DNA from: Minisyncoccota bacterium
GTDB lineage: Bacteria; Patescibacteriota; Minisyncoccia; Phycocordibacterales; SW-6-46-9
Direction of reading: 5' to 3'
DNA length: 64,000 nucleotides
Assembly (NCBI GenBank): GCA_040905385.1
Contig: JBBDRP010000002.1
Span: 85,337-149,336, forward strand
Shown: piece after piece, positions 2,961-61,974 of the stretch
Position numbering within the stretch: position 1 is the first letter of the stretch
Layout: every line of letters begins with the position of its first letter
Translations under genes and position numbers: made by a program
The notes under the pieces: model-generated
Told to the model about the DNA's origin: nothing
The model's database searches: none
The model's input: the letters and a program-made list of their open reading frames with translations, nothing else

Positions 2961-2988
2961 ACACCACGTCGAACGTGGTGTTTTTTTA
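2961..2988 (+). terminator. Rho-independent terminator after rpsT
   Basis: Hairpin ACACCACGTCGAACGTGGTGT followed by a T7 tract. The same stem sequence CCACGTCGAACGTGG recurs at 29769-29783. Confidence 0.6.
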
Positions 2989-2998
2989 ATGCTTGAGC

Positions 2999-3030
2999 CT
3001 AAATAACTCAACCGGATGAGTTATTTAGCT
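2999..3030. repeat. 30-bp perfect palindrome CTAAATAACTCAACCGG(A/T)TGAGTTATTTAG, copy 1 of 2
   Basis: Near-identical element at 61945-61974. Forms a 12-bp stem hairpin. Confidence 0.5.
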
Positions 3031-4837: not shown

Positions 4838-4873
4838 TAAAAATCAGCACCACAAGGTGCTGTTTGTTCGCTG

Positions 4874-4958
4874 CGGTGGGAGAGGGATTCGAACCCCCGG
4901 TGCCTTGCGGCACTCCGGTTTTCAAGACCGGTGCATTCGACCACTCTGCCATCCCACC
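4874..4958 (-). tRNA. tRNA-Ser(TGA)
   Basis: The reverse complement folds as a class II tRNA: acceptor GGTGGGA/TCCCACC, anticodon stem CCGGT/ACCGG with loop CTTGAAA, long variable arm, T-loop TTCGAAT. 85 nt. Confidence 0.85.
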
Positions 4959-4977
4959 AAATATTCACTTTTTAAAC
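4941..4977. repeat. Direct repeat copy 1: tRNA-Ser 5' end (18 nt) plus 19 nt of upstream flank
   Basis: 37-nt match with one mismatch to 5123-5159: CCACTCTGCCATCCCACCAAATAT(T/G)CACTTTTTAAAC. Confidence 0.7.
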
Positions 4978-5122: not shown

Positions 5123-5159
5123 CCACTCTGCCATCCCACCAAATATGCACTTTTTAAAC
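5123..5159. repeat. Direct repeat copy 2: orphan duplicate of the tRNA-Ser 5' end plus flank
   Basis: See 4941-4977. The 145 bp between the copies contains the palindrome CTAGAAGCTAAGCTTCTAG and the motif ACTGGTCGCTTTGCGACATGCG. Confidence 0.7.
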
Positions 5160-6415: not shown

Positions 6416-7864
6416 ATGCTTCGCAATCCGCTTTACCATATTTACCTGCTGCAGCTAGAGAATTACCACCTCCGTCGTTTTGTGACGGCCGCGGCACGAG
6501 ATTGTTTCTCACCACCAGAAAAAACGCGCCATCCAATTACCTGGACCGCGAAACTAATTGGTGTAACGACGCTGGCGGTCCTTTTTGCTCTACTGCTGTC
6601 GCTTGGTGCTGGTCTTTCGGCCGGCCCTCTCTTTTCTGACCCGTCGGTGGTCGGGTGGGGAGTCGCGGTTACTGTGTTTCTTTTTATGTACATAGGTTTT
6701 TTTCTGCCGTTGGCTGTCGGGTCGGCAGTTACACTGCCACTGGATCGCGTGATTCGTTTGATTATCCGCGCTCAGGCTCGTCGAAAAGTTTCTCGGCTGG
6801 ATAATCTCACCATTATCGGGATCACCGGCAGCTACGGAAAGACCACGATGAAACGAACGCTGAAGACTCTACTGTCTGCTGGTAAAAATGTGGTAGCCAC
6901 GGATGAAAGTCACAACACACCAATCGCCGTGGCCCGGTCTCTGCTGAATGACGTCACCGACCAAACCGACATCTTTATCGTGGAGATGGGCGCCTACGGC
7001 CCCGGAGACATCAAGGCCCTGTGTGAGATCACACCGCCAGACATCAGTGTTCTGAATGGTATCAATGAAGCTCACTTCGAGCGGTTCGGCTCACTTGAGA
7101 ATACCATCAATACCAAGTTCGAGATCGCTACCAGCGTCCCGGATGCCGCGGTAATTCTGAACGCTGATGACGAGACCGTGATGAAAAATTATAAGCGGTT
7201 TGTTGGTGATCGGGAGCCGCTATTCTACAGTGCAAAAAATCACGAAGCCTGTGATTTCGAGGTCTACGACAAACGGTTTCACGAGGACGGCACCGGTATT
7301 TCCTTTCGTGTTAAGCGTGACGACCAAGCGCTTGGGTACGCAAAGGTAAATCACTTTGCCGACTACATCATCGGTAATGTGATAGCTGGTTTGTGTGTGG
7401 GGCAGGTGCTTGGGATCTCTGAAGAGAAGGTTTTGAAAGCCGCTCATCAGATAACGCCGACATCGCACCGACTGCAGCCGATTCAACGCACCTCCAGTAA
7501 TGTGCTGGTGATCGATGACAGCTACAACGGTAACCCGGCCGGTGCTCATGCAGCCATTGGTGTGCTTGAGAAGTTCATCTCTCGTCGAACAATTTACGTA
7601 ACGCCCGGGTTAGTGGAGATGGGGGAGCGAGCTCCGAAGCTACACCGTGAGATCGGCAAGCATCTGGCTGCCGTGGTTGATGTGGTGGTGCTGGTAGAGA
7701 CGAGCGTGACCGACTACATCGAGGAAGGCCTGCGGCAGGGTGGCTTTGGAGGTGAGCTTGTTACTTTTGCTAGCCCACAGGAAATGCACGCCGGAATTTC
7801 TGAGCTTCTCAAGCCGCGGGATGTGCTGCTTTTCCAGAACGACTGGCCAGAGAATTATCGGTAA
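6416..7864 (+). CDS. murF: UDP-N-acetylmuramoyl-tripeptide--D-alanyl-D-alanine ligase (MurF) with an N-terminal multi-TM extension
   Basis: P-loop IIGITGSYGKTT and the MurF signature DDSYNGNP. About 130 N-terminal residues are hydrophobic. Confidence 0.7.
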   Translation: MLRNPLYHIYLLQLENYHLRRFVTAAARDCFSPPEKTRHPITWTAKLIGVTTLAVLFALLLSLGAGLSAGPLFSDPSVVGWGVAVTVFLFMYIGFFLPLAVGSAVTLPLDRVIRLIIRAQARRKVSRLDNLTIIGITGSYGKTTMKRTLKTLLSAGKNVVATDESHNTPIAVARSLLNDVTDQTDIFIVEMGAYGPGDIKALCEITPPDISVLNGINEAHFERFGSLENTINTKFEIATSVPDAAVILNADDETVMKNYKRFVGDREPLFYSAKNHEACDFEVYDKRFHEDGTGISFRVKRDDQALGYAKVNHFADYIIGNVIAGLCVGQVLGISEEKVLKAAHQITPTSHRLQPIQRTSSNVLVIDDSYNGNPAGAHAAIGVLEKFISRRTIYVTPGLVEMGERAPKLHREIGKHLAAVVDVVVLVETSVTDYIEEGLRQGGFGGELVTFASPQEMHAGISELLKPRDVLLFQNDWPENYR

Positions 7865-7876
7865 CCATCTTTTTCA

Positions 7877-7975
7877 CTGCACTACAAATAATTCTCCAAC
7901 GGAGAATTTTATCTGCTCGGGCAATTTTTCTGCTGCGCAGAAACCATGCAAATTGCCCTGCGCAAGGCTTGTGAA
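7877..7975 (+). repeat. Family-1 structured intergenic repeat, copy A
   Basis: CTGCACTACAAATAA + hairpin + TTTTATCTGCTCGG + nested hairpin containing CATGCAAAT + CCTGCGCAAGGCTTGT. Aligns with copies at 25123, 27686, 30751(-), 32633 and 35503. Confidence 0.8.
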
Positions 7976-8027
7976 AAAAGGGTAACCGATAATTTATAAA
8001 ACGAGAGGCGCATGAAAATAGGGTTAC

Positions 8028-8335
8028 CTCATGTATTGACTACCAAGTGTAGTGAGAGACATGCAAATATATTTGCATGTCCGAACGAAGCGCCGGTAGG
8101 TAGATTGCCAAATCTACTCTTCAAGCAAAGCGAGTAATGCACAAGCTTGTTTGTATATTCGATCGACGCGTAGTGCAGATGGGTAAACTAGTGGTGGAAT
8201 CTCGCAACCTTTGACTGCCAAACGAAGCGAGTAGAATGAACGCTTGCATTTATTCTCGAGCGAAGTGCCGGCAGACAAATGGATAAATTCACTTTCAGTT
8301 TTAAACTGAAAGTGAAAAGAACCTTTAGGTTCTCT
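8028..8335 (+). repeat. Family-2 modular hairpin-repeat locus 1
   Basis: Units of the form CCAA..AG(C/T)GAG + variable hairpin + TCGA.CGA.G.GCCGG. Unit-for-unit homology to 29858-30057, but with the unit order swapped. Both loci start with TTGACTACCAA. Confidence 0.7.
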
Positions 8336-8464
8336 AGAAGTAATTCTTTGTTATCCATTTGACAAATAACCTGGTTCGCGTACTCTAATAAGACCTCCAA
8401 GGTTTCTGACCCAAGACCGACGGAGAACAATTTTACAACAGGCGCTATTTATAGGCGTCAGAAA

Positions 8465-8498
8465 GACCCACCGGCACTCTCCGGTGGGTCTTTTGTTT
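8465..8498 (+). terminator. Rho-independent terminator
   Basis: GACCCACCGG CACTCT CCGGTGGGTC followed by TTTTGTTTT. It lies at the end of the repeat-rich non-coding stretch 7986-8500, suggesting that stretch is transcribed on the + strand. Confidence 0.55.
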
Positions 8499-8586
8499 TA
8501 TTTAATAAAGTTGACATTCACCCTTAATGAAGGTATTTTCTACATAGACGTTATTCTCAACTCGAATCAAAATAAAGAGGTACAGA

Positions 8587-9170
8587 TGTTTAACAAAGAA
8601 AAAGAAATAGCCGATTTGCAAAGGCAGACATTGCACGTTCATGCATGGAATCATATCTCTGATATGGACGACGCAAAGAGCGTCTTTCGTAGTATTGATA
8701 AATCTCATATTCGCAAAAAGGCTTACAAGAAATACATAGTTTCATTGCGAAGACTTGTAGGAAGCGCTATAGCTTCTTCATTTATTAGGTCTGAGTATGA
8801 GAACAAAATCGAACAAGCTATTAAAGAGTTAATTGAATCCCTTGACCAAGAGCAACCCTTTCTTGCTAATATAGAAAAACAGACTGGACGCCTAAAACGC
8901 AATCAAAACTCTTTCTTCCATGATGAGGGGAGGGAAAATAGGAAGAAGGGAAATAACCTCAGCAGTGTTGAGGTGAAACAGCTTCTTTCTGCCTTATTTG
9001 ACATAGTTTCCTTTACCATGAAAGAAAACGGCCTGTCTCACATTCAGCCTTTTGAGAAAGAATCAATATTTAGCCTAATTTGTTCTGCTCAAACAGAACT
9101 AAAAAAAGATACCTCCTTTTCAAAATTTGTTGATGTGATGGTGGAAATACAAGCCAAGGAGAGGAGTTGA
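8587..9170 (+). CDS. hypothetical protein from an AT-rich, probably acquired gene
   Basis: 194 aa ORF with SD AAAGAGG 6 nt upstream of the ATG. Low GC relative to neighbours. No recognisable family. Confidence 0.45.
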
Positions 9171-10838: not shown

Positions 10839-10934
10839 ACTATTCTTTGGCGATACAGGTTGCTCCCGTAAAGAAATTTTGCCGGAGCGGCATTCGGGAA
10901 AAATGGAAGCAAGCTTTCGTTTTATCCCTTATTT

Positions 10935-10981
10935 GCTCCCGTAGCTCAACCGGATACCTGCCTGCCGGCAGGCAGGGAGCA
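10935..10981 (+). pseudogene. Truncated tRNA-like element: 5' acceptor and D arm, then a 20-bp palindrome in place of the rest of the tRNA
   Basis: GCTCCCGTAGCTCAACCGGATA matches the 5' third of the tRNA-Arg at 3095. CCTGCCTGCCGGCAGGCAGG follows directly, then GAGC. No anticodon or T arm. Confidence 0.45.
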
Positions 10982-11399: not shown

Positions 11400-12410
11400 A
11401 TGTTTGGCATCGAACTTACAGAATTTCTACTTTTTGCGCGTCAGCTCGGGATCGCCATGGCTGGCGCGGCCGCGTTGTGGGGCTTTATCTTCAGCCAGAA
11501 GGATTTTCACTGTGGCGAAGATACGAAGTGTGTCATCTACGACTGGATTGCGGTGCGCATTATGCCACTTTTCTTGATCGGGGTGGGGATCGGGACCGTC
11601 TCGTACGTCGGGCTCTTGATGACGGTAGAGGCGGCGGCCCATCAGGGCATTGCCTACCTGCCATCAACCCCAGAGGTGGCCGCATCCTTTCCGATTCTGA
11701 CCCCGCTATTTTTCGTACTTATTCTGGCGACACTAATCGCAATTTCGCTCCCGAATAAGGGTGGTGAGAAGTACGCCAACTGGATTACGTACTTTTACGG
11801 CGCCATGTTTGTCGTCTGCTTCGCCATCACGTCATTTCCAGCCTGGCGCGGCGAGCTGGATGCTCGACAGCTTTTTTATGCCGGCCACGGTTTTCACTCT
11901 ATCTTTACGGTTGGTTCAGTAATCGTGCTGGATTATCTATACATAATGTCGACACGAGCCGAGATTCTCAAGCAGCATATCTTTGCACTTTTCCCGACCA
12001 TCAGCGCCGTTGTTTGGTACGGCCTGGCCTTTGATCTGCTCTCCTCGCTGTTAATTATCGAAGGCTTCGAGCCGACAACGAAACTGATCTTTATGCAGAC
12101 GGTAATCGGTATCCTGATTATTAACGGTGTCTTCCTCTCCGGTCCGCTGGCACGACAAATGCTTTCCTCGGTAGAGCCGGATGGGAAGGAGGTACGCGGC
12201 GGCTGGAAGCTGTGGGCCAACATTGCCGGGGCGGTCTCGGTCGTATCCTGGGTGACAATTACGTTTGTTGATTCATTTGAAAATCTCCCATTTTCATATC
12301 TTGAATACTTCGGAATTTATATCGGTGTCATCATTCTGGCAATTGCCGGCCACTCCTTTATGGAATGCATGGAGAGACGCACCGAACCACCGGAATTCAT
12401 ACACAACTAG
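11400..12410 (+). CDS. hypothetical polytopic membrane protein
   Basis: 336 aa with about 9 predicted TM helices. No recognisable family. Confidence 0.5.
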   Translation: MFGIELTEFLLFARQLGIAMAGAAALWGFIFSQKDFHCGEDTKCVIYDWIAVRIMPLFLIGVGIGTVSYVGLLMTVEAAAHQGIAYLPSTPEVAASFPILTPLFFVLILATLIAISLPNKGGEKYANWITYFYGAMFVVCFAITSFPAWRGELDARQLFYAGHGFHSIFTVGSVIVLDYLYIMSTRAEILKQHIFALFPTISAVVWYGLAFDLLSSLLIIEGFEPTTKLIFMQTVIGILIINGVFLSGPLARQMLSSVEPDGKEVRGGWKLWANIAGAVSVVSWVTITFVDSFENLPFSYLEYFGIYIGVIILAIAGHSFMECMERRTEPPEFIHN

Positions 12411-12808: not shown

Positions 12809-13065
12809 GGTATTTATATTATAACTTTAATATCTTAAGGTGGGTCACAAGTAAATCTACTGACGTAGATTTCTCGCGGTCCGTTATGACTGGTCGTTTC
12901 GCGACATACGCCATTTTCCCTCGGGGAAATCTCCAAAAACACAAAGCAGTTTGTGTTTTTGCCCCGGCTCGTGGTTTTTGCCTTTCGCTTCGCTCAAACA
13001 AAAAAACATCACTGCGCTTCCCACAACCTAAAAATCCGCCAAACGGCGGATTTTCTTAACTGTTG

Positions 13066-16648: not shown

Positions 16649-16994
16649 CAAATTACTCGGAGAGAAAAACCCCTGCAGACGCACAGGTTTTTTCTCTTCC
16701 GACGCTCGCTTCGCTCACTGCCTCTCTTTTCCACGGAATTGAATTAAGACACTTACAAGTTAAGCGCCTTAATTCAATGCTTTTACATTATGTATTTAAG
16801 TTGGGAGTCGAAAGCCGGAGGTATATCTGAGTTTGAGAATAGCGAAAGGCCTGGGTGTTTTTTGTTTTGCAAAGTAAGGGCAGCATTGATGTTGAAAACT
16901 TTACTATCGAATCATTTATGGTCGTGTTACATTATTTTCAGGTATTAAAAACATAAAAACGGCACTTTTTATCACTAAAAGCTCATCCTTATCT

Positions 16995-18530: not shown

Positions 18531-18679
18531 AACAGCGTGCTACACTACCCGGATTCGAACAGTTGAAAGGGTCGGAAAACGATAGTTTTCCGTGGAGGAG
18601 AGCAGGTCCGACCACTGGTTGGACCGTTGAGAACCGTGGGTTCTTAAAGCGCAGAAGCTTTGCTTCGAGCAGTGAGCGT

Positions 18680-18694
18680 TCCGGGTAGGCACCC
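18680..18694 (+). repeat. 15-nt duplicate of the tRNA-His 3' end (TCCGGGTAGGCACCC)
   Basis: Identical to 18474-18488 inside tRNA-His. The copies are separated by about 195 bp of structured non-coding DNA. Confidence 0.6.
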
Positions 18695-18720
18695 CGCACT
18701 AGAGTCACACAGTGACAAAA

Positions 18721-21050: not shown

Positions 21051-21321
21051 CTTTAAATAGAGAGCCAATCGTGTCAGCCGGCAGATTTCTTTGTCAGCGC
21101 CTGCGGTTCTCACTCACCTTATTGTTATCATAAGGCTCGCTTCGCTCCTCGGCGCTTTCGCGAACTCTGCTCACCTGAGCACGATTTACGTTCGTGGTAT
21201 ACCGCCTACATTTTTTTTGTTTGTTTTAATCAGCCTACTTGGGCTGGTTTTGGAATAGTATTAAAAAATGCCTCCTGAATTAAATTAGCAGAAGGCATTT
21301 AAGTTGTTGTTATTTTTCAGA

Positions 21322-25100: not shown

Positions 25101-25122
25101 TGTTCACATTCTTCTTTTGTGT

Positions 25123-25222
25123 GTGCACAAATAATTCTCCAGCGAAGAATTTTATCCGCTCGCGTGATTTTTCCACTACGTGAAAACCGTGCAAATTACG
25201 CTGCGCGAGGCGCCACAAAAGA
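25123..25222 (+). repeat. Family-1 structured intergenic repeat, copy B
   Basis: ACAAATAA + TTCTCCAGCGAAGAA hairpin + TTTTATCCGCTCG + hairpin with CGTGCAAAT + CTGCGCGAGGCGCC. Confidence 0.75.
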
Positions 25223-26180: not shown

Positions 26181-26549
26181 ACTTTTTTACCCCAAAATCT
26201 CTGGTTTGTGGGTTTACATGCAGATAAATTTTTGCTACATTTATCCATGCAGCGCCAAAGACCACAGGCAAAGCTTGCGCAATTTCTAATGACCAATTCC
26301 TAATTTCTAGTTACTTTTAGAGATTAGATATTCCGATTTAGAAATTCGAGCGTAGCGAGTAAGTCCTGTCGAGGCCGCACAGACTCCAGATTTTTTGTAT
26401 TTGGATACGTTGCGGTGGCTTGGCGCCACCGCTTTTTTTATTGAGCGGTTAGCGAAATACCAGGTTAAACATCCCGCTAAAGCGGGATAAAATCGTAGAT
26501 TTTGTTCAACACGGGTAATGATCACTTTATTCACTAGATCGAAATAATT

Positions 26550-27666: not shown

Positions 27667-27685
27667 CTTGAAGTTTATCTACTTA

Positions 27686-27788
27686 CTGCACTACAAGTAA
27701 ATTCCCAGCGGGAATTTCTATCTGCTCAGCATCGCAGTCCCGTGCATACGGGACATCATGCTGCGATGCTTGCGCAAGGCTTGTAAGC
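27686..27788 (+). repeat. Family-1 structured intergenic repeat, copy C
   Basis: CTGCACTACAAGTAA + ATTCCCAGCGGGAAT hairpin + TTCTATCTGCTCAG + nested hairpin + CTTGCGCAAGGCTTGTAAG. Confidence 0.75.
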
Positions 27789-29129: not shown

Positions 29130-29732
29130 ATGGATATTCTCGAAACACTATTTTCCAGTGCCGCCCGGGTACGAATTCTCCGGACGTTTTTATTTCAGCC
29201 GCGCAAGACATTCTCTGCCAGCGACATTGCCGAGCGGACTGACGTAGCCTCAACGACTGCACGGGCTCACGCGCAGGATCTGGCGGCCATTAAGCTACTG
29301 CATGAGGTCGAGGCAAAAGATTACACCAACGGTCAATCAGTGACAGCCTGGAAGCTGAATCGTAACTCAAGTCTGCGACGCCCGCTGCATGAAATCGTGC
29401 TCAAGCATCAGGACATCACCCCGGATGATATTAAGAAGCGTCTCGAGCGACTGGGGGACATCTCGCTTCTAGTTCTTAGCGGAATCTTTTCCGGCACCGA
29501 TGATCGACCCATTGATGTACTGATTGCAGGCAGCGGTATCGATACCGCAAAGCTTGCCCGGTCGCTATCACGAATTGAAAAATCTTTTGGAACCGAGCTA
29601 CGTTATACGCACCTTTCTAAAGAAGAGTTTGATTATCGACGTAATGCCTACGACCGACTGATCCGCGATGTACTCGACTACCCGCACCACGTCCTGATTG
29701 ACGAAAAGAATGTTACTACGCAGCTGGATTAG
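29130..29732 (+). CDS. hypothetical protein, possibly a winged-helix N-terminus plus a nucleotidyltransferase-like C-terminus
   Basis: N-terminal ILRTF..FSASDIAERT is wHTH-like. C-terminal GSGID..IDVLIAG weakly resembles minimal NTase motifs. Confidence 0.4.
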   Translation: MDILETLFSSAARVRILRTFLFQPRKTFSASDIAERTDVASTTARAHAQDLAAIKLLHEVEAKDYTNGQSVTAWKLNRNSSLRRPLHEIVLKHQDITPDDIKKRLERLGDISLLVLSGIFSGTDDRPIDVLIAGSGIDTAKLARSLSRIEKSFGTELRYTHLSKEEFDYRRNAYDRLIRDVLDYPHHVLIDEKNVTTQLD

Positions 29733-29857
29733 CTTGCGAGTTACTAGCCTCTAGCAATTAGCTCTTAGCCACGTCGAACGTGGTAAAACATTTAGCGCAT
29801 TTTTTAAGATAAACAGCACGTGTTACGTAGCATGCTACGTAACAAGTAAAGGTAATT

Positions 29858-30057
29858 GACTACCAAACAAAGCGAGCAATACACAAGCTTGCTTGTATAT
29901 TCGAGCGACGTGCAGGAAGGTTGATTCTTGAATCAACTCTCCAAGCGTAGTGAGTGACATGGACACTTGTATCTATGTCCGAACGGAGCGCCGGGAGACA
30001 AAAAAATAACCTGCTTTCAAGCATGCTTGAAAGTAGGAAAGCTGAGAGCTTTCCAGA
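29858..30057 (+). repeat. Family-2 modular hairpin-repeat locus 2
   Basis: Begins TTGACTACCAA like locus 1. Units with ACAAGCTTGCTTGT and ATGGACACTTGTATCTAT hairpins are flanked by AGCGAG / GTCCGAACGGAGCGCCGG. The stems are covariant with those in locus 1. Confidence 0.7.
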
Positions 30058-30159
30058 GAACCCCTCGTTATCTTTTTGACAAAGACCTTATAAGATGCTT
30101 TAATAAGTTCAGATTTACATTAATTAATACGAACAAACCCGCCCCGGAGGGCGAAGATA

Positions 30160-30543
30160 ATGGAAGAAACCAAAAAAGATCTGAAGATTACCGCTGAAGA
30201 TTTGAGTGAATTGAAAGACGAACAGCACAGATTCTATGCCAGAACTGTCACCAAGCCAGGTAGTGCACTTGATAAGTTTGATGACGCACTTAACCAATTG
30301 ACAGAAAATGAAAAATGGATTCTTTTTTTGCACCATGCTGAGAACCAACCTTTCAAGGTAATTGCAACAGAAATGTCACTTCCGTACCATGATCCACAGC
30401 AGGTTAAAAATATACATGACGAAAGCATGCAGAAACTTATTGAGGAACTTGACTTGTCATCAGAGGATGAAATAAGTCACCTTTTTGTCTTTAAAGATCT
30501 TCAGCAAAAGGCTCTCAAGGTGATAAATACACTTTCTTCGTGA
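30160..30543 (+). CDS. hypothetical protein with a sigma-70 region-4-like HTH
   Basis: LTENEKWILFLHHAENQPFKVIATEMSLPYHDPQQVKNIHDESMQKL resembles a sigma r4 / LuxR-type HTH. 127 aa. Confidence 0.4.
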   Translation: MEETKKDLKITAEDLSELKDEQHRFYARTVTKPGSALDKFDDALNQLTENEKWILFLHHAENQPFKVIATEMSLPYHDPQQVKNIHDESMQKLIEELDLSSEDEISHLFVFKDLQQKALKVINTLSS

Positions 30544-35502: not shown

Positions 35503-35605
35503 TTGCGTTACAAATAAACCACGCCAGCGCGTGGTTTTTATCTGCTCGGATGATTTTCTGCTAGCGCAGAACCATGCAAATCACCCTCCGCAAGACTTAC
35601 AAAAC
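35503..35605 (+). repeat. Family-1 structured intergenic repeat, copy E
   Basis: ACAAATAA + ACCACGCCAGCGCGTGGT hairpin + TTTTATCTGCTCGG + hairpin with CATGCAAAT + CCTCCGCAAGACTTACAAAACAG. Confidence 0.75.
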
Positions 35606-39565: not shown

Positions 39566-39712
39566 ATGTATATTTCGACTATGAATCTTCCGTACCCAGC
39601 CCTTTCTGTGTGGCAAAAGATGCTGTATTGTGTACACGATTTTGAAAGAGCTGGGTGCTGGAATTTCTAAGTTTACTCAAGTTGTCACTTTCGCTCACTA
39701 AGTAATTTCAAC

Positions 39713-41218: not shown

Positions 41219-41752
41219 ATGAGTAGAATCGGCAAAAAACCTATCGAAGTTCCCGAAAACGTTACCGCCTCAATGAAGGACGGTGTCTTCACGGCGGAGG
41301 GACCAAACGGCACGCTGGAGCGTAAGCTGCATGATATTGTGTCTATTGAGATTGATGCTGGGGAAATTACTGTCACACCAAAAGAAAAAAATGTTTTTGC
41401 TCGCTCAATGTGGGGAACAGCCGCGGCACACATTAAGAATATGATCACTGGCGTGACCGAAGGCTTTAAAAAGCAGCTCATCTTTTCAGGAATTGGTTAC
41501 CGTGCAAATGTAGGGGGAGATACACTGACACTTGAAATGGGGTACTCACATAATATTGAACTTGATATTCCGGATACGTTGGAGGTATCAGTCGAGAAAA
41601 ACACCATTACCGTGAGTGGTCCAGACAAGGAGTTAGTTGGCTCTTTTGCTGCTGATATTCGTGCAGTACGAACACCGGAGCCGTACAAGGGATCCGGCAT
41701 TAAGTACGCCGACGAGATTATTCGTCGCAAGGAAGGTAAAAAGGCCGTATAA
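41219..41752 (+). CDS. rplF: 50S ribosomal protein L6
   Basis: [11 protein letters not shown]. An unusual 180-bp structured gap, with a GAATGAATACA..TGTATTCATTC hairpin, lies upstream. Confidence 0.9.
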
Positions 41753-47762: not shown

Positions 47763-50700
47763 ATGAATCCAGATAAATCAAAAATACAGAATCAACCCCC
47801 AGAAGTTATGAACCCTCCTATTGACGAGCGAGAGAGAGGTATGAATAATATGAGGAATAACATTGAAAGAAGAGAAAGGGTGCGTGAAGGTCTGGAAGAT
47901 ATAGGAGAGCTTTCTGAAGAAATCAAGCGGCTTGCAGATGAGGTTAATGAAGCTGATAAAATTATCATCAAAGAAGGTATACCATCAATCCGGAAGGCCG
48001 ATAATACGGAGTGGAAGTTCGAGATTGATAAAGAGGTGGTAGATAAAGATTCACCAGAAGCTACACCTGAGCCTAAGGAGGAACGTGATCAGGGGAAGTC
48101 GAAAGATAATCAGGAAACCGTTGATGCTGAGTCATCCGAAGGCCAGAAAGAAGAGCAAGTATATGAAAATCACCCAGAGGAAGAGGAAGTGGAGGTAGTG
48201 GCTTCACCAGATTCAGAAAAAACAGAAGCCGAGTTAGGAGATACAGAGAAAGAATCCCAACCAGAGCAGCCGAAAAAGCCAGTGACGCTAAGAAATGAAG
48301 TGGAAGCCAATCCAAAAAAGGAGTATGGAGACTTTGATCGCCTTAAAGTGGCCGAGATGCTCCGTGACGGTGCGTCAGACGAGGAAATCTGGCAGGCTTC
48401 CAAGGAGCACGGCTTCTTCTTTAAATTCGATGGCTCCAGCTATTACTTAGGTGATAACGATAAGTGGCGACATCGTAGTGCAGAAGGAAATACGCACACT
48501 AATATAGAAGAGGAAGAAGAAGCTAAAGAAAAAGTACTAAATGAACTTGACAAGTACCGCCAGATGGAAGACTGGTTCGGTAGCTACGAGGATGCGTTTG
48601 TTGCTGCTAATGCATTATATGTTAATGAGATACCCCAAAATAAGACAGACTTACTGAATAAAATGGGGCAGATTTCAGCATCATGGGAGGATATCAAGAA
48701 AGATAATAAAGATATTCGCGAGCTGGTAGCGTCAGCTTTGGGTACACCCGATGATCAGATGGCTGAAAATATTAATACAAATGATGAGAATTTATCAGAT
48801 AAAAAAGATAACATTAAAAAAGATAACATGAGCCCAGAAAAATCAGGTGTACCTAAGGATCAGGAGAGAGAGGATGTGAAACGCCCCGAGGACTCAGCAG
48901 CAGAAACTCCTGAAAATCAAGAATCAACCGAGGGAATTAAGGAGGGAGATCTTGTTCGATATTTAGACGATGGCGGAAGCAAAGTGAAGGAAGCTGTACG
49001 AGTTACAGACACAAAAGTCGAAGATGGTAAAACCTTCATTTCGTTTGATGGCGGGAAAAAATATTATCAGTTTGCCGAGTATGCCGATGATCCAAACAGT
49101 GGACTAAATAAAATCTATTCGGAATCAAATGAAGAAGAGGCTGAAAATTCAACTGAAGATCGAAAATCTGCGGAGGGAATTAAGGCAGGTGATAAGGTTC
49201 ATTGGAAGAATCATCTCGGTGAGAGGAGTGGTGAAAAAATTGTGGCCGAAATCAAGGGATCGGGTGAGGATGCCATGGTCTTCTTCGAAGACGACAGTCG
49301 TGGGTATCCAATCAGTGAAGTTTATCCAGTCGATAATGAGAAGACTGAAGAATCAGATATCGTGCCGGATGCAGAAAATGCTACTCAGGAGGAAGTAGAA
49401 AGTAATGAAGTACTTAGTAAGTTCGAATCTCGCTTTGGTATCTCTACTGAGGCACTTGAAAGTATTGATGGCTTTCCTCAGGGTAAAGCAGAGCAGCGGT
49501 GGATCCTAGAAAATCTTACGCAGCTGACAATGGGAATGATTGAGTCTGAGGGAGAAAAACGTCGTGAGAAAGCGCTTGATGCCAGTATTCCGGATGAGTG
49601 GAAATCGGATGCTGGTGGTCGGTTAAAAAACTTTTTCAATAAAGTAAAAATAGGATTTACAAAACTTCAAGAAGGAGTGGAAACGAAAAATCACACTGTC
49701 TCATTTAAGCAGCAAATTTTAGAAGAGATAGAAAATGGTGGAATTAAAGAACATGGCTCCACTATAAAAGAGCTCATAAATAGTCTGAACGAGTCTGACT
49801 TTGGTGTAAAAATTAATGAAGAAACAGATGAGCTCGAGTATGATTTTGTTTCGATGCCAGAAGCTGCTACTGAAGCCCAAGCGGAAGTAATTCAAAATTA
49901 CAATGAAGTTGCTACCAAGATGGCTAATACGCCGCGAGAATGGCAGTATGACTCCGCTACTAAATCACAACGAAAGCAGTATGAGGGGGCCAAAGCTGAT
50001 TACGATGAGGCTCGCAAAGAGCTAGCCACGTTAAAGCTTGATCATGGCGAATTAAAAGGTGACGATCTAGCAGTAGCTCAGTACCTCAATGAAAAAGACT
50101 TTGGAGTAGAGATGAATCAGCTGCTTAATACCAATCCAGAGCTGGGTGAAGAGATTGAAGATATTAGCAATCAGTCGGTGTGGTGGCAAACAATTAAAGG
50201 CGGATTCAACCAAAAGAATGCCGTAAATGCCTTGATTGGTGTTGGTGGTGCTGCTACTCGCTGGGCAACTGCTAGCGCAACCTTTGGTATAGGAGCTGTT
50301 GCTTCTGGTGCTGCTGTCGGATCCTTGCGCGGGAAGCTTGAAGCCGGGCGAAAAATACGCCAAAAAGAAAAAGATGCTCGTTACGGCGGTATTGACAATA
50401 TTCCCGGAATTGAAGATCTGACCACGGTTCGTGATCAAATTACTGCCACTGAAGAAGAAATCGCTGCTACTGATGATGATAAGCAGGTAGCAGTGCTTAA
50501 AGAGAGACGTAGAGAATTGCTAGAAAAACGCGACGAGCTTGTACAGAGAAAAGATATCAGGCAGAAGTTGTACGAAGCTGGCGCGATTGTTAACGCCGGT
50601 GATCTGATTGAGAAACTTGAGCGTGATATTAGTTTGGTTGAGGATTCTGATCCAGAATCAAACCAGCGAGAAAATCGTCTGGGATCTCTGGATGCTCGTG

Positions 50701-52868
50701 TACAGTATGTGGTTAATAAACTGGATCAGGGGATTGTGAACTTTGGTGCAAATTCAGCTGATATCGCTTCTGCCAAGATGAACTTAATGAAGCTTCTGTC
50801 TCAGGCCGAGGTAACTACCGAAACATATGGTGATGAATGGGGGGCGAAAGTATTTGATGAGTGGGTGGAACGTGTTGATCTTAAAAATCAAGAAGAAATT
50901 GAACAGGCTCGAAAAGCATTTACTCGAAAAGAGATGGCCAAGGCTGCCGGGGTTAGTGCAGCCTTCTTTGGTACAGGTTACGGATTACGGTGGGCAGGTG
51001 AGACGTTAGGATGGTGGGGGGGAGATTCAGTAGAGATTCTAGCTGACAGCCCAGAAATATCTGAAGGCCCACCTGGGGGGCAGGTACCGGACTCAACTGT
51101 CGAAGCTAGTCCTCTTAGTCCAGCTGCGGCTGATTCAGCAGATGCGGATACGACTGGCGCAAACCCATTTGTGCCAGATCTAGAAACCGCTCCAGCTGAA
51201 AGTACATCTACTGATACGTCTAGTCTCGAAGAGATTAACTTCCCTGATGCAGATTCTACTGCGGTAGACTCAACTACTGCCGACAGTGTCAGTACAGAAG
51301 CGACCGCGCAAGAAGAAAATCCACTCGAGAGTAACCTGGAAACTGCCGCCGCAGATTCAACAAATGTTGATACAACAGAAGCATCTGAGTCAGTAGCCGC
51401 GTCAGCAGCAGCCGAGACAGATGTCAATCCCGAAGTCATCGGTGTCCGAGAGGTCGTAATCGATGAACAGGGCGAGGGCATGATCCACGCTATCGCTGAT
51501 AAGCTCGAGGATGACTTTGATCTTCCGCGTGACAAGGCGATGCGGATTGGAAATGAGATGTACATCAAGGGCGAGCAGGCAGGTGAAGATTCTGTCGAAA
51601 GAATGTACAACCTGATTGGTCGAGACGCCAGCTTCTCGCTTGATTTTGGTGACCTGACGGCCGAAGACCTCGAGGGTGAGTCGGTCGAAGACCTGGCCGA
51701 GCGCATCAATTTTAGCAATGAAAGCGTTGATTCCGACCTCAAGGAGTTTGATTTACCAAAGCAGGAATCAGCTGCCGCAGGCGCTTCTGACAGCTCAGAT
51801 AACCCTTATTATGGAGAGAAAAACCCGATCGACACCAAGGATATTGATTCAGTCACTATCAATGAAGCCAACCAACAGGCCTGGGATAAGCAGATGGATG
51901 AGTCTGGTGTCATTAGGGGCGACGATCTTCCTGAAGGGGCACGTGAAGACGCAGATATGGGGCGTGCTCCGGCTCCGGAACGAGTTGATATCGGTATTGA
52001 TAAACTAAAGGCGGCCGTAGCTGAATCTGATGTGCGAGACCAAATTTATGCCGATCTCGACCAGCGGGTAAATGCCGCTCGGATGAATCCACAAGCCTTG
52101 TCTGAAGGTATGCGTGTTTCTGATCTGGCTGCCCTCCGTGATTATATGCAGGCAAATCCCGACCAGAATCTCATAGTTTCGATTGACGCCATGCGCGAAG
52201 GTGATCGGCGCATGCTGCGAACGCTTGATTTACTTATCGAGTCCAAGGCCAATGAGCCCGGAAGTGTGCTGGAAAAAGTCGACCGCTACATCTCAACCGG
52301 TATTGGTGACATGACCATCGAAGCTGATGCAGCACCTGAATCCGTACAAACTCCAGATGAAGGAGGGGATATTGATGCGGTCCGTAAGGAGATGGAGGAG
52401 GCCGGAACACCAATTGATGAAGAGCCCGAAATTGAGGTAAGAACGTCAGCCGCGGCAGTTAGTGATGGGCTAGAGGCACTGAAAACTGAAGTTGATCAGA
52501 TTCCGTCAGATAAGCTGCAGGCAATGGCAACACACATGTCAGCGCAAGCCTACGTTGAGCCAGAGTTCATCAACGTTCCATCCGAACGACTAGAGGCACT
52601 GGAAAATTACCTTGAAGAAAATGCGACGCGTTCTACTTCAGGAATGATTCAGAAAATGAGCGAAGAATCTCCAGAAACAATTACAGCTTTTGAACGAGTG
52701 ATGAATCTGGATGACAGTGGTGACATTGTTGATCGTAAGTCATTGCGACCGGTGTATAAGATGACTCAAAAGCTGATCAGCAACCTAACCGAAGAAAATT
52801 TCCCAGGCGGTATTCCGGAGTATGCACGTGAAAGCCTTGAGGCCAGCCGATCTGCAACCCAGGCCTAA
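47763..52868 (+). CDS. giant (1701 aa) highly acidic protein with two central hydrophobic segments and coiled-coil regions
   Basis: Single uninterrupted ORF with strong codon periodicity. No signal peptide. Hydrophobic stretches at about aa 820-850 (NALIGVGGAATRWATASATFGIGAVASGAAVGSL) and about aa 1060-1085 (AAGVSAAFFGTGYGLRWAGETLGWWGG). Long D/E/T/S-rich low-complexity tracts. Confidence 0.6.
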   Translation: MNPDKSKIQNQPPEVMNPPIDERERGMNNMRNNIERRERVREGLEDIGELSEEIKRLADEVNEADKIIIKEGIPSIRKADNTEWKFEIDKEVVDKDSPEATPEPKEERDQGKSKDNQETVDAESSEGQKEEQVYENHPEEEEVEVVASPDSEKTEAELGDTEKESQPEQPKKPVTLRNEVEANPKKEYGDFDRLKVAEMLRDGASDEEIWQASKEHGFFFKFDGSSYYLGDNDKWRHRSAEGNTHTNIEEEEEAKEKVLNELDKYRQMEDWFGSYEDAFVAANALYVNEIPQNKTDLLNKMGQISASWEDIKKDNKDIRELVASALGTPDDQMAENINTNDENLSDKKDNIKKDNMSPEKSGVPKDQEREDVKRPEDSAAETPENQESTEGIKEGDLVRYLDDGGSKVKEAVRVTDTKVEDGKTFISFDGGKKYYQFAEYADDPNSGLNKIYSESNEEEAENSTEDRKSAEGIKAGDKVHWKNHLGERSGEKIVAEIKGSGEDAMVFFEDDSRGYPISEVYPVDNEKTEESDIVPDAENATQEEVESNEVLSKFESRFGISTEALESIDGFPQGKAEQRWILENLTQLTMGMIESEGEKRREKALDASIPDEWKSDAGGRLKNFFNKVKIGFTKLQEGVETKNHTVSFKQQILEEIENGGIKEHGSTIKELINSLNESDFGVKINEETDELEYDFVSMPEAATEAQAEVIQNYNEVATKMANTPREWQYDSATKSQRKQYEGAKADYDEARKELATLKLDHGELKGDDLAVAQYLNEKDFGVEMNQLLNTNPELGEEIEDISNQSVWWQTIKGGFNQKNAVNALIGVGGAATRWATASATFGIGAVASGAAVGSLRGKLEAGRKIRQKEKDARYGGIDNIPGIEDLTTVRDQITATEEEIAATDDDKQVAVLKERRRELLEKRDELVQRKDIRQKLYEAGAIVNAGDLIEKLERDISLVEDSDPESNQRENRLGSLDARVQYVVNKLDQGIVNFGANSADIASAKMNLMKLLSQAEVTTETYGDEWGAKVFDEWVERVDLKNQEEIEQARKAFTRKEMAKAAGVSAAFFGTGYGLRWAGETLGWWGGDSVEILADSPEISEGPPGGQVPDSTVEASPLSPAAADSADADTTGANPFVPDLETAPAESTSTDTSSLEEINFPDADSTAVDSTTADSVSTEATAQEENPLESNLETAAADSTNVDTTEASESVAASAAAETDVNPEVIGVREVVIDEQGEGMIHAIADKLEDDFDLPRDKAMRIGNEMYIKGEQAGEDSVERMYNLIGRDASFSLDFGDLTAEDLEGESVEDLAERINFSNESVDSDLKEFDLPKQESAAAGASDSSDNPYYGEKNPIDTKDIDSVTINEANQQAWDKQMDESGVIRGDDLPEGAREDADMGRAPAPERVDIGIDKLKAAVAESDVRDQIYADLDQRVNAARMNPQALSEGMRVSDLAALRDYMQANPDQNLIVSIDAMREGDRRMLRTLDLLIESKANEPGSVLEKVDRYISTGIGDMTIEADAAPESVQTPDEGGDIDAVRKEMEEAGTPIDEEPEIEVRTSAAAVSDGLEALKTEVDQIPSDKLQAMATHMSAQAYVEPEFINVPSERLEALENYLEENATRSTSGMIQKMSEESPETITAFERVMNLDDSGDIVDRKSLRPVYKMTQKLISNLTEENFPGGIPEYARESLEASRSATQA

Positions 52869-58439: not shown

Positions 58440-58585
58440 TATTTATTGTCTAGCGAAGCGAGAGAAAAGAAAGCTAGCTTTCTTTTCCGAGCGAGCGACG
58501 ACAACAAAAGACACCAGCTTCTGCATCTTTGTTGCAGAGAAACGCGCGAGAGCACGCTTTCTGTCGAGGGTTTATCCCTCGACAA
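58440..58585 (+). repeat. Family-2-like unit plus hairpin cluster
   Basis: TAGCGAAGCGAGAG + GAAAAGAAAGCTAGCTTTCTTTTC hairpin + CGAGCGAGCGACG. Then TCTGCATCTTTGTTGCAGA and GTCGAGGGTTTATCCCTCGAC hairpins. Confidence 0.5.
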
Positions 58586-58622
58586 CGGTGTCTTTTATAC
58601 CATATAGGGGTCTGATTCGCAA

Positions 58623-61891: not shown

Positions 61892-61944
61892 CTCTGGCTA
61901 TGTACAGATTGGTGACAAGCAAAAGTAGTTTTTTATGTCAGAAT

Positions 61945-61974
61945 CTAAATAACTCAACCGGTTGAGTTATTTAG
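61945..61974. repeat. 30-bp palindrome CTAAATAACTCAACCGGTTGAGTTATTTAG, copy 2 of 2
   Basis: Matches 2999-3030 apart from the central base. Confidence 0.5.

Follow-up and report, generated by a model that had tools for sequence, protein, structure and literature searches.

A modular hairpin repeat of Patescibacteria that is probably a non-autonomous interspersed element

What is the array of hairpins that fills a long non-coding stretch behind murF in a Candidatus Paceibacterota metagenome-assembled genome (MAG)? The DNA analyzed here, the window, comprises 64,000 nucleotides of contig JBBDRP010000002.1 (assembly GCA_040905385.1, positions 85,337 to 149,336). An earlier note, made from the sequence alone, had described two diverged copies of this array, locus 1 (8028-8335) and locus 2 (29858-30057), with a promoter-like start and a terminator, and had proposed either a transcribed structured RNA family or proliferating repeat modules. 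Based on the analysis described below, we consider it roughly 68% probable that locus 1, locus 2 and a third locus at 58442-58598 (the 58k locus) are copies of a non-autonomous, modular, interspersed repeat element of Patescibacteria. The family is apparently undescribed; in the full-text literature, we found no description of interspersed repeats or of structured intergenic elements or RNAs in Patescibacteria, for which candidate phyla radiation (CPR) is another name. The window is bacterial chromosome and contains genes for MurF, Ddl, EF-Tu, IF-3, a VirD4/TraG-like protein and six tRNAs, as well as ribosomal-protein operons, and its GC skew is positive along the entire length. MurF and the L,D-transpeptidase/S11 peptidase have 100% identity to proteins of a MAG named Candidatus Paceibacterota bacterium. 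A phage origin, suggested by the small open reading frames (ORFs) and scattered tRNAs, was rejected, since the phage collection gave no match and murF, ddl, tuf, ribosomal-protein genes and infC are present.

The repeated module is a hairpin unit of 60 nt, of which the window holds six, all on the forward strand: three at 8040-8274, two at 29860-29997 and one at 58446-58505. A covariance model (R1) was built from a gapless alignment of 12 units, these six and six from other genomes, in which 14 columns are invariant. This model gave only six strong matches in the window, at 61 to 81 bits, and the five in loci 1 and 2 (8035-8104, 8113-8182, 8210-8279, 29855-29924 and 29933-30002) had E-values of 1e-18 to 1e-25, far beyond chance, confirming that the two loci are built from the same units. 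A regular expression for the core (G[CT]GAG, 25 nt, CGANCG) found the five units of loci 1 and 2 and a sixth site at 58458-58493, and each match was exactly 36 nt long. The swapped order of the units, also proposed before, was recovered by a repeat finder, with 87% identity between 8122-8173 and 29864-29915, and 79% between 8043-8099 and 29941-29997, and both loci indeed start with ATTGACTACCAA (8035-8046 and 29855-29866). The site near 58445 had been listed as a short fragment of the motif; it is in fact a full sixth unit with its own tail (58446-58596).

Read from the base upward, the unit consists of a helix P1 (e.g., CUACC/GGUAG), an AA bulge, a short helix P2, and a 1x3 internal loop (A versus GRA), followed by a G-C and a Y-R pair, a tandem G.A/A.G loop, a G-C pair, a bulged A, and at the apex a 10-bp stem of free sequence but fixed length with a 4-nt loop that is often CUUG. 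In 11 to 12 of the 17 sequences compared, the outer pairs of P2 do not form, and P2 is therefore effectively 2 bp long. The purine-rich internal loops (AGYGAG and CGARCGRAG, including the tandem G.A pair) are conserved. Pair statistics were based on 17 units from 12 loci, 500 shuffles, and controls slid by 1 to 3 columns. Positions predicted to pair did so in 90.4% of cells, and both sides had changed in 13 of 22 pairs, bearing out the covariant stems seen earlier in the two loci. None of the 500 shuffles attained the observed paired fraction or covariation score, the slid controls were 34-52% paired, and the 12 seed units alone gave the same pairing picture. The Y-R pair beside the G.A loop (20-52) alternates cleanly, being C-G in 7 units and U-A in 8. 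Moreover, G.U pairs are frequent and the reverse strand scores for the bare palindrome only, so the fold belongs to one strand. Judged from these alignments, the covariation shows that the folded single strand matters, but it neither demonstrates transcription nor separates RNA from single-stranded DNA.

Strong covariation and a strand-specific fold with G.U pairs also argue for a rival explanation, namely that the loci are genes for a trans-acting structured non-coding RNA family, with their own promoters, ends formed by the tail hairpins, and loops bound by a conserved RNA-binding protein. The many CUUG-type tetraloops point in the same direction, as do the folding z-scores relative to shuffles of -5.8 for the locus 1 region and -4.7 for the locus 2 region. 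However, no known RNA family was recovered: in the whole window, Rfam 15 returned only 5 tRNAs at the gathering threshold, with RNase P, tmRNA, SRP, 6S, 5S and ribozymes in scope, a permissive search (E<=10) of 7850-8600 and 29730-30170 yielded sub-threshold chance matches only, none of them over a unit, and ARAGORN reported nothing within the loci. The earlier note had named a match to an Rfam family, such as the REP/BIME classes, as evidence that would speak against its proposal, and Rfam 15 gave no such match. Word resemblances to Y RNA, the twister ribozyme, SRP, 5S rRNA and integron attC were also considered and rejected, as they are backed by neither Rfam nor conserved positions. Taken together with the architecture, positions and distribution of the copies described below, we regard a trans-acting RNA family as an improbable account of these loci.

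The architecture of the three loci is that of a variable number of units followed by a tail. Locus 1 (8036-8363) opens with a TTGAC (8036-8040); the T after it and the ACC open P1. Unit 1 (8040-8099, 80.6 bits) folds with P1 CUACC/GGUAG, the AA bulge, P2, the tandem G.A loop, the 10-bp stem and a UAUA loop, and is followed by a linker hairpin, GTAGATT-GCCA-AATCTAC (8100-8117), and by unit 2 (8118-8177, 61.5 bits; repeat family D2), an 87% paralogue of the first unit of locus 2. An internal TTGAC, found by motif search at 8211-8215, directly precedes unit 3 (8215-8274, 80.6 bits; P1 CUGCC/GGCAG). The tail (8277-8360), visible in the sequence, the minimum free energy fold and the consensus fold, is a closing stem, AAATGGATAA/TTATCCATTT, around hairpins at 8290-8314, 8319-8332 and 8336-8347, and the 3' strand of this stem is overlapped by the right TTGAC (8359-8363). 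Because a third TTGACT lies directly before unit 3, the sequence suggests that locus 1 may represent two adjacent elements, 8036-8215 and 8211-8363. Locus 2 has the same components on the same strand: a left TTGAC (29856-29860), unit a (29860-29919, 75.7 bits), a linker hairpin (29920-29937) that reads GTTGATTC-TT-GAATCAAC, so that compared to locus 1 the bases have changed and the pairing is kept, unit b (29938-29997, 72 bits; repeat family D11), which is a 79% paralogue of unit 1 of locus 1, a tail (29999-30078) whose closing stem pairs 29999-30010 with 30067-30078, with one mismatch, and encloses hairpins, and a right TTGAC (30076-30080). The latter tail was likewise supported by sequence, fold and consensus fold. 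The 58k locus, also on the forward strand, has a left direct repeat TTTAT (58442-58446), a single unit (58446-58505; model match 58441-58509, 66.5 bits) that is antisense to the flanking peptidase and infC genes, a tail (58506-58596) with closing stem AAAAGACACC/GGUGUCUUUU around three hairpins in both sequence and consensus fold, and a right direct repeat TTTAT (58594-58598).

Thus, the window loci contain 1, 2 and 2+1 units, one tail always comes last, and in all three this tail is a closing stem enclosing three small hairpins. Consensus folding yielded the unit and the closing stem together with two inner hairpins; for 20 of the 36 pairs, one or more sequences had changes on both sides. The variable number of units, 1 to 3, does not fit well with genes for a trans-acting RNA. 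The positions given earlier for loci 1 and 2 were right, but the loci are longer (8036-8363 and 29856-30080) and include the tails, which had been taken for a terminator. An intrinsic-terminator-like hairpin with a T tail does exist on the forward strand at 8461-8494, but some 100 nt separate it from the element, and locus 2 has nothing comparable.

Two insertions of the element were identified by comparison with empty sites. Comparisons were made with stretches and relatives from other genomes, metagenomes or contigs, labeled L001 to L028. In L003, the element lies inside murE, and the 453-amino-acid (aa) ORF reads straight through it, so that MurE has 27 extra residues between GSEFF and IEETKF, which none of its 11 closest homologues (identity of 64-86%) shares. 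L018 and L019 have empty sites with the sequence TTCTTTATC|GAGGAA (also given as GAATTCTTTATC|GAGGAA), versus TTTTTTATT[ACCAAAC...CCCGTTATT]GAGGAG in the filled site, which corresponds to an 81-nt in-frame insertion flanked by TTATT. The second case is the 58k locus, where the peptidase-infC gap is 214 nt in the window versus 62-64 nt in the syntenic L026 and L027. Here the insertion is 152 nt long (58447-58598), with TTTAT at both sides, and 214 - 152 = 62. The filled site reads GTATTTAT[TGTCTAGCG...GGTGTCTTTTAT]ACCATATAG versus a single CTTTAT|ACCATATAG in L026 and L027, and it is the alignment with these empty sites that defines both direct repeats. The direct repeat is thus present only once in L018, L019, L026 and L027, which is the pattern of a target-site duplication. 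When the ends were read by eye, neither the L003 element (ACCAAAC... and ...ATACCCG) nor the 58k element (TGTCTAGCG... and ...CGGTGTCT) showed terminal inverted repeats; if anything, their ends show direct repetition. A copy in frame within MurE, and a recent insertion upstream of infC that is antisense to both neighbors, are difficult to reconcile with a family of trans-acting RNA genes.

Close relatives of the window genome lack the element, which also argues against trans-acting RNA genes. No unit was found in approximately 67 kb of five syntenic relatives (L020, L022, L023, L026 and L027), including 37 kb from relatives with the RuvX-hydrolase-MurF-Ddl synteny (MurF 68-75% identical) and 29 kb from L026 and L027. 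The gap between MurF and Ddl measures 50 nt in L023 versus 1.39 kb in the window, and in L022 a homologue of the 194-aa gene follows 95 nt after MurF with a conserved promoter region; the window block from 7865 to about 8505 is therefore lineage-specific. Of the two readings put forward in the earlier note, that of proliferating repeat modules is thus supported by the dispersal of the copies, their absence in syntenic relatives and two empty-site insertions. The source organism is assembled in SRR27977661, and a Logan contig of it that carries the peptidase gene (L028) stops about 135 nt past this gene, within the stem of the 58k unit, which suggests that hairpin repeats break short-read assemblies.

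The TTGACT in front of the units had been read as the start of a promoter, and the loci as promoter arrays would have -35 boxes there. The motif does recur: TTGACT(A/G)CCAA occurs exactly three times in the window, before the units at 8036, 8211 and 29856, and with one mismatch it gave 6 matches versus 1.9 expected, a number that no shuffle attained. However, TTGACT precedes only three of the six units, there is no -10-like hexamer at the promoter spacing of 16-18 nt, the promoter scan called nothing there, and a start site would sit inside the hairpin. The copies defined by empty sites offer another explanation. They are flanked by (T)TTAT. The left repeat opens P1 with its last bases, and the right repeat closes the tail stem with its first. 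The geometry of loci 1 and 2 is equal, with TTGAC at the right end as well as the left, and in other genomes, in the other subtype, the position equivalent to TTGACT reads TTATTA. Because of the missing -10 partner and the TTATTA of the other subtype, TTGACT probably serves a second subfamily as its terminal or target repeat rather than being a -35 box, an assignment made by analogy with the TTTAT repeats, and we give the promoter arrays hardly any credence. The lack of an upstream promoter consensus and of a -10 partner for TTGACT also speaks against independently transcribed RNA genes.

Other genomes and metagenomes were scanned with a 54-nt IUPAC pattern, for which we calculated approximately 0.1 chance match in the genome collection. 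This returned 17 stretches, of which 11 are genuine, 2 are duplicates and 4 are chance matches to GC-rich coding DNA without a hairpin. Copies are present in at least 10 other MAGs or contigs, labeled Patescibacteria, Moranbacteria or 'Bdellovibrionales'. The latter label ('uncultured Bdellovibrionales') is carried by L003, L005, L008 and L009, and the element is otherwise found in Patescibacteria; the label of L003 is probably wrong, judged from sequence similarity, because the named closest homologues of its MurE are from Moranbacteria. The usual form of a genuine copy is one unit plus a tail, TTATTACCAA...AGYGAG-stem-CGARCGRAGYGCCGG-UAAAAU-CGGGU...ACCCG-UUAU. L003, L005, L008, L009, L010, L014 and L015 have a simple hairpin as their tail, whereas the tails of L001 and L002 have three hairpins. 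L016 belongs to the window subtype, with TTGACTACC... and the same linker hairpin as locus 1; its contig ends inside a second unit, which is identical to the first over the 25 nt retained. A relaxed pattern found no copy in viral contigs, and there is no further copy in the approximately 8.6 kb beyond the window.

The positions of the copies relative to genes bear on another explanation, that they are cis-acting RNA elements, such as mRNA stabilizers, attenuators or terminators, that evolved in place for neighboring genes. Orientations outside the window were read from the flanking sequence without a gene caller. Loci 1 and 2, L001, L002, L003, L012, L015 and L016 are co-directional with their neighbors, and 58k, L005, L009, L010 and L014 are antisense; orientation is independent of the neighboring genes. 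In favor of evolution in place, the hairpins are very stable, and several copies occupy positions in 5' or 3' untranslated regions (UTRs): behind murF, upstream of the tuf operon and of rpsU (L002), and, in L015, between a T-box terminator and ileS. However, about a third of the copies are antisense and the neighboring genes are unrelated. Moreover, the same sequence family is common to unrelated sites and lineages, which requires spread by copying and not local evolution. Effects on neighboring genes may follow insertion, yet they leave the origin of the copies unexplained, and we therefore consider evolution in place quite unlikely. In L001, L015 (where it is the T-box terminator) and L016, the element is situated immediately 3' of a terminator T-run, a position that fits a TTTAT-type target. 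In L015, two features were recognized by eye at 560-660, a T-box-like leader (AAGGTGGTACCACG) and, with a T-run, a terminator hairpin. Both are upstream of the element, which lies between this terminator and an aminoacyl-tRNA synthetase gene resembling ileS, also by eye; read-through transcripts would therefore carry the element in their 5' UTR. T-runs also occur behind some tails (L014 and L015), as expected of RNA genes with their own ends, but they are inconsistent among copies. The strand that carries the element has a positive local GC skew in 9 of 12 loci; gene orientation confounds this, and a replication-strand preference is suggestive only.

Several observations weigh against an interspersed mobile element. 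Only two insertion events are documented, and the strict pattern matched few genomes, 6 of 185,579 species. Among approximately 25 of about 70 window ORFs that were scanned, there was no transposase, recombinase, reverse transcriptase or Nop-domain protein. For loci 1 and 2, the outer boundaries and the role of TTGAC as a target duplication are deduced by analogy with the copies that empty sites define. The similarity between the two loci extends about 40 nt past the right TTGAC, to TAATAAG, which makes the right boundary of locus 1 uncertain. Finally, L009 and L010 are syntenic, with homologous flanking proteins on both sides (44-81% identity), and both carry the element. Their elements are approximately 80% identical by hand count, versus 66% in a 460-nt alignment that takes in the adjacent gene along with the element, and their stems differ by compensatory changes. 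Judged from these sequences, the copy resembles a resident functional element under long-term purifying selection more than a purely selfish insertion. Such a retained syntenic element is also what a trans-acting RNA would leave behind. Either the fold was selected after insertion, or the copies were homogenized within each genome.

How would such an element spread? As proposed here, the element has between one and three 60-nt units, with extra units in tandem, and then a tail, which is a simple hairpin or a closing stem that encloses three hairpins. It inserts at short T-rich sites and has a 4-5-nt direct repeat at its flanks, mostly (T)TTAT, and TTGAC in the subfamily of loci 1 and 2. The landing site can be a 5' UTR, a position behind a terminator, or an in-frame site within a gene. 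Since the loops are conserved, the stems compensate and the fold is restricted to one strand, the folded single strand is probably recognized by a protein encoded elsewhere in the genome. Tentatively, the elements may move through a single-stranded DNA intermediate, a site-specific or HUH-type enzyme, and recombination at the shared TTTAT/TTGAC core. Single-stranded DNA is favored because double-stranded circles of 80-150 bp would be implausibly stiff and there are no inverted repeats for DDE transposases, although selection could just as well act on the transcribed RNA. After insertion, the stable hairpins would join neighboring transcripts, with a putative effect on their stability or termination. 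A more speculative and rather unlikely idea is that the unit is a phylum-wide recognition module for a dedicated protein, and that movement occurs by a mechanism undescribed for bacterial repeats. This might involve a tiny folded single-stranded intermediate, either DNA or RNA-derived, that is inserted site-specifically at a 5-nt core, TTTAT or TTGAC depending on the subfamily. Alternatively, the hairpins may have been domesticated as a Patescibacteria-specific RNA scaffold, which would explain why the copy in L009 and L010 is better conserved than the adjacent DNA.

Of the known repeat families, the BOX elements of Streptococcus pneumoniae and S. suis have the closest architecture. These are modular (boxA-boxB(n)-boxC), intergenic and occasionally located in genes, and strongly folded if transcribed (PMC3049150). 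In both BOX and the present elements, fixed end modules enclose internal modules that are repeated in tandem a variable number of times. However, BOX elements have terminal inverted repeats and are presumably mobilized by an insertion sequence (IS) transposase, whereas the present elements have no such repeats, their module is a long hairpin with conserved purine loops, and they occur in an unrelated phylum. Rickettsia palindromic elements are small repeats found in the reduced genomes of host-dependent bacteria, both between genes and as in-frame genic insertions (PMC10969869). The 27 residues in the L003 MurE resemble such an insertion in preserving the reading frame, but this is one in-frame case versus dozens in Rickettsia, many present copies carry stop codons in that frame (e.g., L014), and the modular architecture and the phylum differ as well.

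REP, BIME and REPIN-RAYT elements share with the present family short imperfect palindromes with compensatory change, mosaic clusters, a location after genes or terminators, and presumed recognition of a folded single strand. REPs are 20-40 nt long, have a conserved 5' GTAG and usually form inverted pairs, whereas the units described here are 60 nt long, are all in direct orientation on one strand and carry conserved AGYGAG/CGARCGRAG loops. The palindrome-associated elements (PATEs) derived from IS200/IS605 are similar in that they lack terminal inverted repeats and have hairpins at or near both ends, a fixed 4-5-nt left junction and a strand-specific structure. IS200/IS605 elements cause no duplication on insertion, and their cleavage sites are distant from the 20-nt hairpins and read by guide tetranucleotides. 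In the present elements, the same pentanucleotide borders the element on either side and continues into its terminal helices, the left 'hairpin' being a repeatable 60-nt unit with several internal loops, and the ORFs scanned included no TnpA. A pentanucleotide that is fixed at the left junction and repeated at the element end is either a duplication or a right-end cleavage motif, and the hairpin geometry is unlike that of IS608. Miniature inverted-repeat transposable elements (Correia/NEMIS, ERIC and RUP) are likewise small, non-coding and multi-copy, with short direct repeats, a patchy distribution among relatives and possible transcript effects. They differ from the present family by their IS-matching terminal inverted repeats and by the duplicated site, which here is a specific pentanucleotide and not TA.

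Tandem stem-loop units in a CPR genome, tandem G.A pairs that recall box C/D k-turns, and a conserved core of 36 nt also bring to mind TIGR arrays. The units of these Tas/Nop-associated guide-RNA systems contain two spacers of 8-12 nt that stay unpaired and have box C (RUGAUGA) and box D (CUGA) as their borders, and have been reported from CPR (PMC12045711). The present elements have neither unpaired spacers, box C/D motifs nor an adjacent Nop-domain gene, and are mostly single and dispersed. In addition, their variable part is a self-complementary stem and the loops are the conserved part, no box C was noticed on reading locus 1, no neighboring protein matches a Nop-like family, and copies elsewhere are mostly single units. 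A k-turn or box C/D reading of the tandem G.A pair fails in its register, since the alternative register pairs in 5 of 12 sequences (hand count) and the 20-52 pair covaries cleanly (7 C-G, 8 U-A). TIGR-like arrays, or any other array-encoded guide system, are therefore a most unlikely explanation. Two further candidates were rejected: an archaeal-type bulge-helix-bulge intron, since P2 lacks its outer pairs in 11-12 of 17 sequences and its bulges turn out to be internal loops (2x1 and 1x3), and a type III toxin-antitoxin system, since the downstream genes differ by locus, the L022 homologue of the 194-aa neighbor has no array, and copies elsewhere are single units.

Aside from the complete units, we detected one degenerate copy on the reverse strand at 10879-10944, which keeps ...GCUCCGGCAAAAU and scores 25.3 bits (E 5.5e-6). 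The short motif AGCGAAGCGAG, which the earlier note had found scattered over many intergenic regions, is indeed enriched, with 9 matches (at most one mismatch) versus 1.35 expected, but three of these lie inside full units. Only two of the matches are candidates for decayed units, both found by motif search on the reverse strand: a possible relic of the 5' half of a unit at 12982-12998 (GAGCGAAGCGAAAG), and another at 16703-16719 (AGTGAGCGAAGCGAG) that adjoins tRNA-Leu. Both assignments are tentative, as the relic call is marginal (3 matches versus 0.65 expected, equalled or exceeded in 3 of 100 shuffles). The AGCGAAGCGAG-like sites at 18600-18700, 21130-21175, 26340-26370 and 39680-39700 are words rich in GAGCG/GCGAG beside hairpins and do not score with the unit model.

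The surroundings of the loci showed additional features. Approximately 130 nt (8364-8498) separate the right end of locus 1 from the promoter of the next gene (TTGACA-17-TATTTT at 8511-8539). This segment, which closes with the strong terminator at 8461-8494, is not present in the relatives L022 and L023 and could belong to the inserted block or represent a short transcript of its own. A second repeat family, called 'Family 1' in the earlier note, is present at 7871-7990, 25119-25213, 27685-27727, 35536-35598 and possibly 41480-41509, and has the order ACAAATAA, a terminator-like hairpin whose stem covaries among copies, TTTTATCTGCTC, a second hairpin and TGCGCAAGGCTTG. One copy is located directly 5' of locus 1, another in a 400-nt gap within the S10 ribosomal-protein operon, and the relative L020 contains a partial copy at 11560-11600. 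A third small repeat of 46 nt (2983-3028 and 61929-61974, 85% identical) forms a perfect hairpin, CTAAATAACTCAACCGG(A/T)TGAGTTATTTAG, and one copy is situated just 5' of tRNA-Arg. A 37-nt direct repeat (4941-4977 and 5123-5159, 97% identical, copies 182 nt apart) contains the initial 18 nt of tRNA-Ser(tga) (4873-4958, minus strand) together with its upstream region; it resembles an att-type scar, or else a local duplication at a tRNA gene. Directly 5' of locus 2, at 29130-29732, a gene encodes a 200-aa helix-turn-helix protein that matches the PADLOC candidate defense family PDC-M05A (E 7e-16) and, weakly, Csa3. Finally, a 1701-aa protein without a Pfam match (47763-52868) is followed by a 924-aa VirD4/TraG-like coupling protein (52895-55669). 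This gene pair is kept in the relatives L026 and L027, where DUF8128 was also called, and may form a module for type IV secretion or DNA transfer that is typical of the clade.

Patescibacteria genomes are smaller than 1 Mb, and we know of few reports of repeats in them. The genome analyzed here carries at least one, and probably several, structured repeat families, which occupy long "non-coding" stretches and the 5' UTRs of core genes (infC, the tuf operon and ileS), and in one case an element can add 27 residues to an essential enzyme. Such elements coincide with short-read contig breaks and can be mistaken for small RNA genes, promoters or terminators, and a covariance model for them would clean up the intergenic annotation of CPR genomes. 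Together, the conserved loops, the compensating stems and the ends without inverted repeats suggest that a recognition system acts on a folded single strand, and the partner protein, once identified, could reveal how mobile DNA persists in streamlined symbiont genomes.

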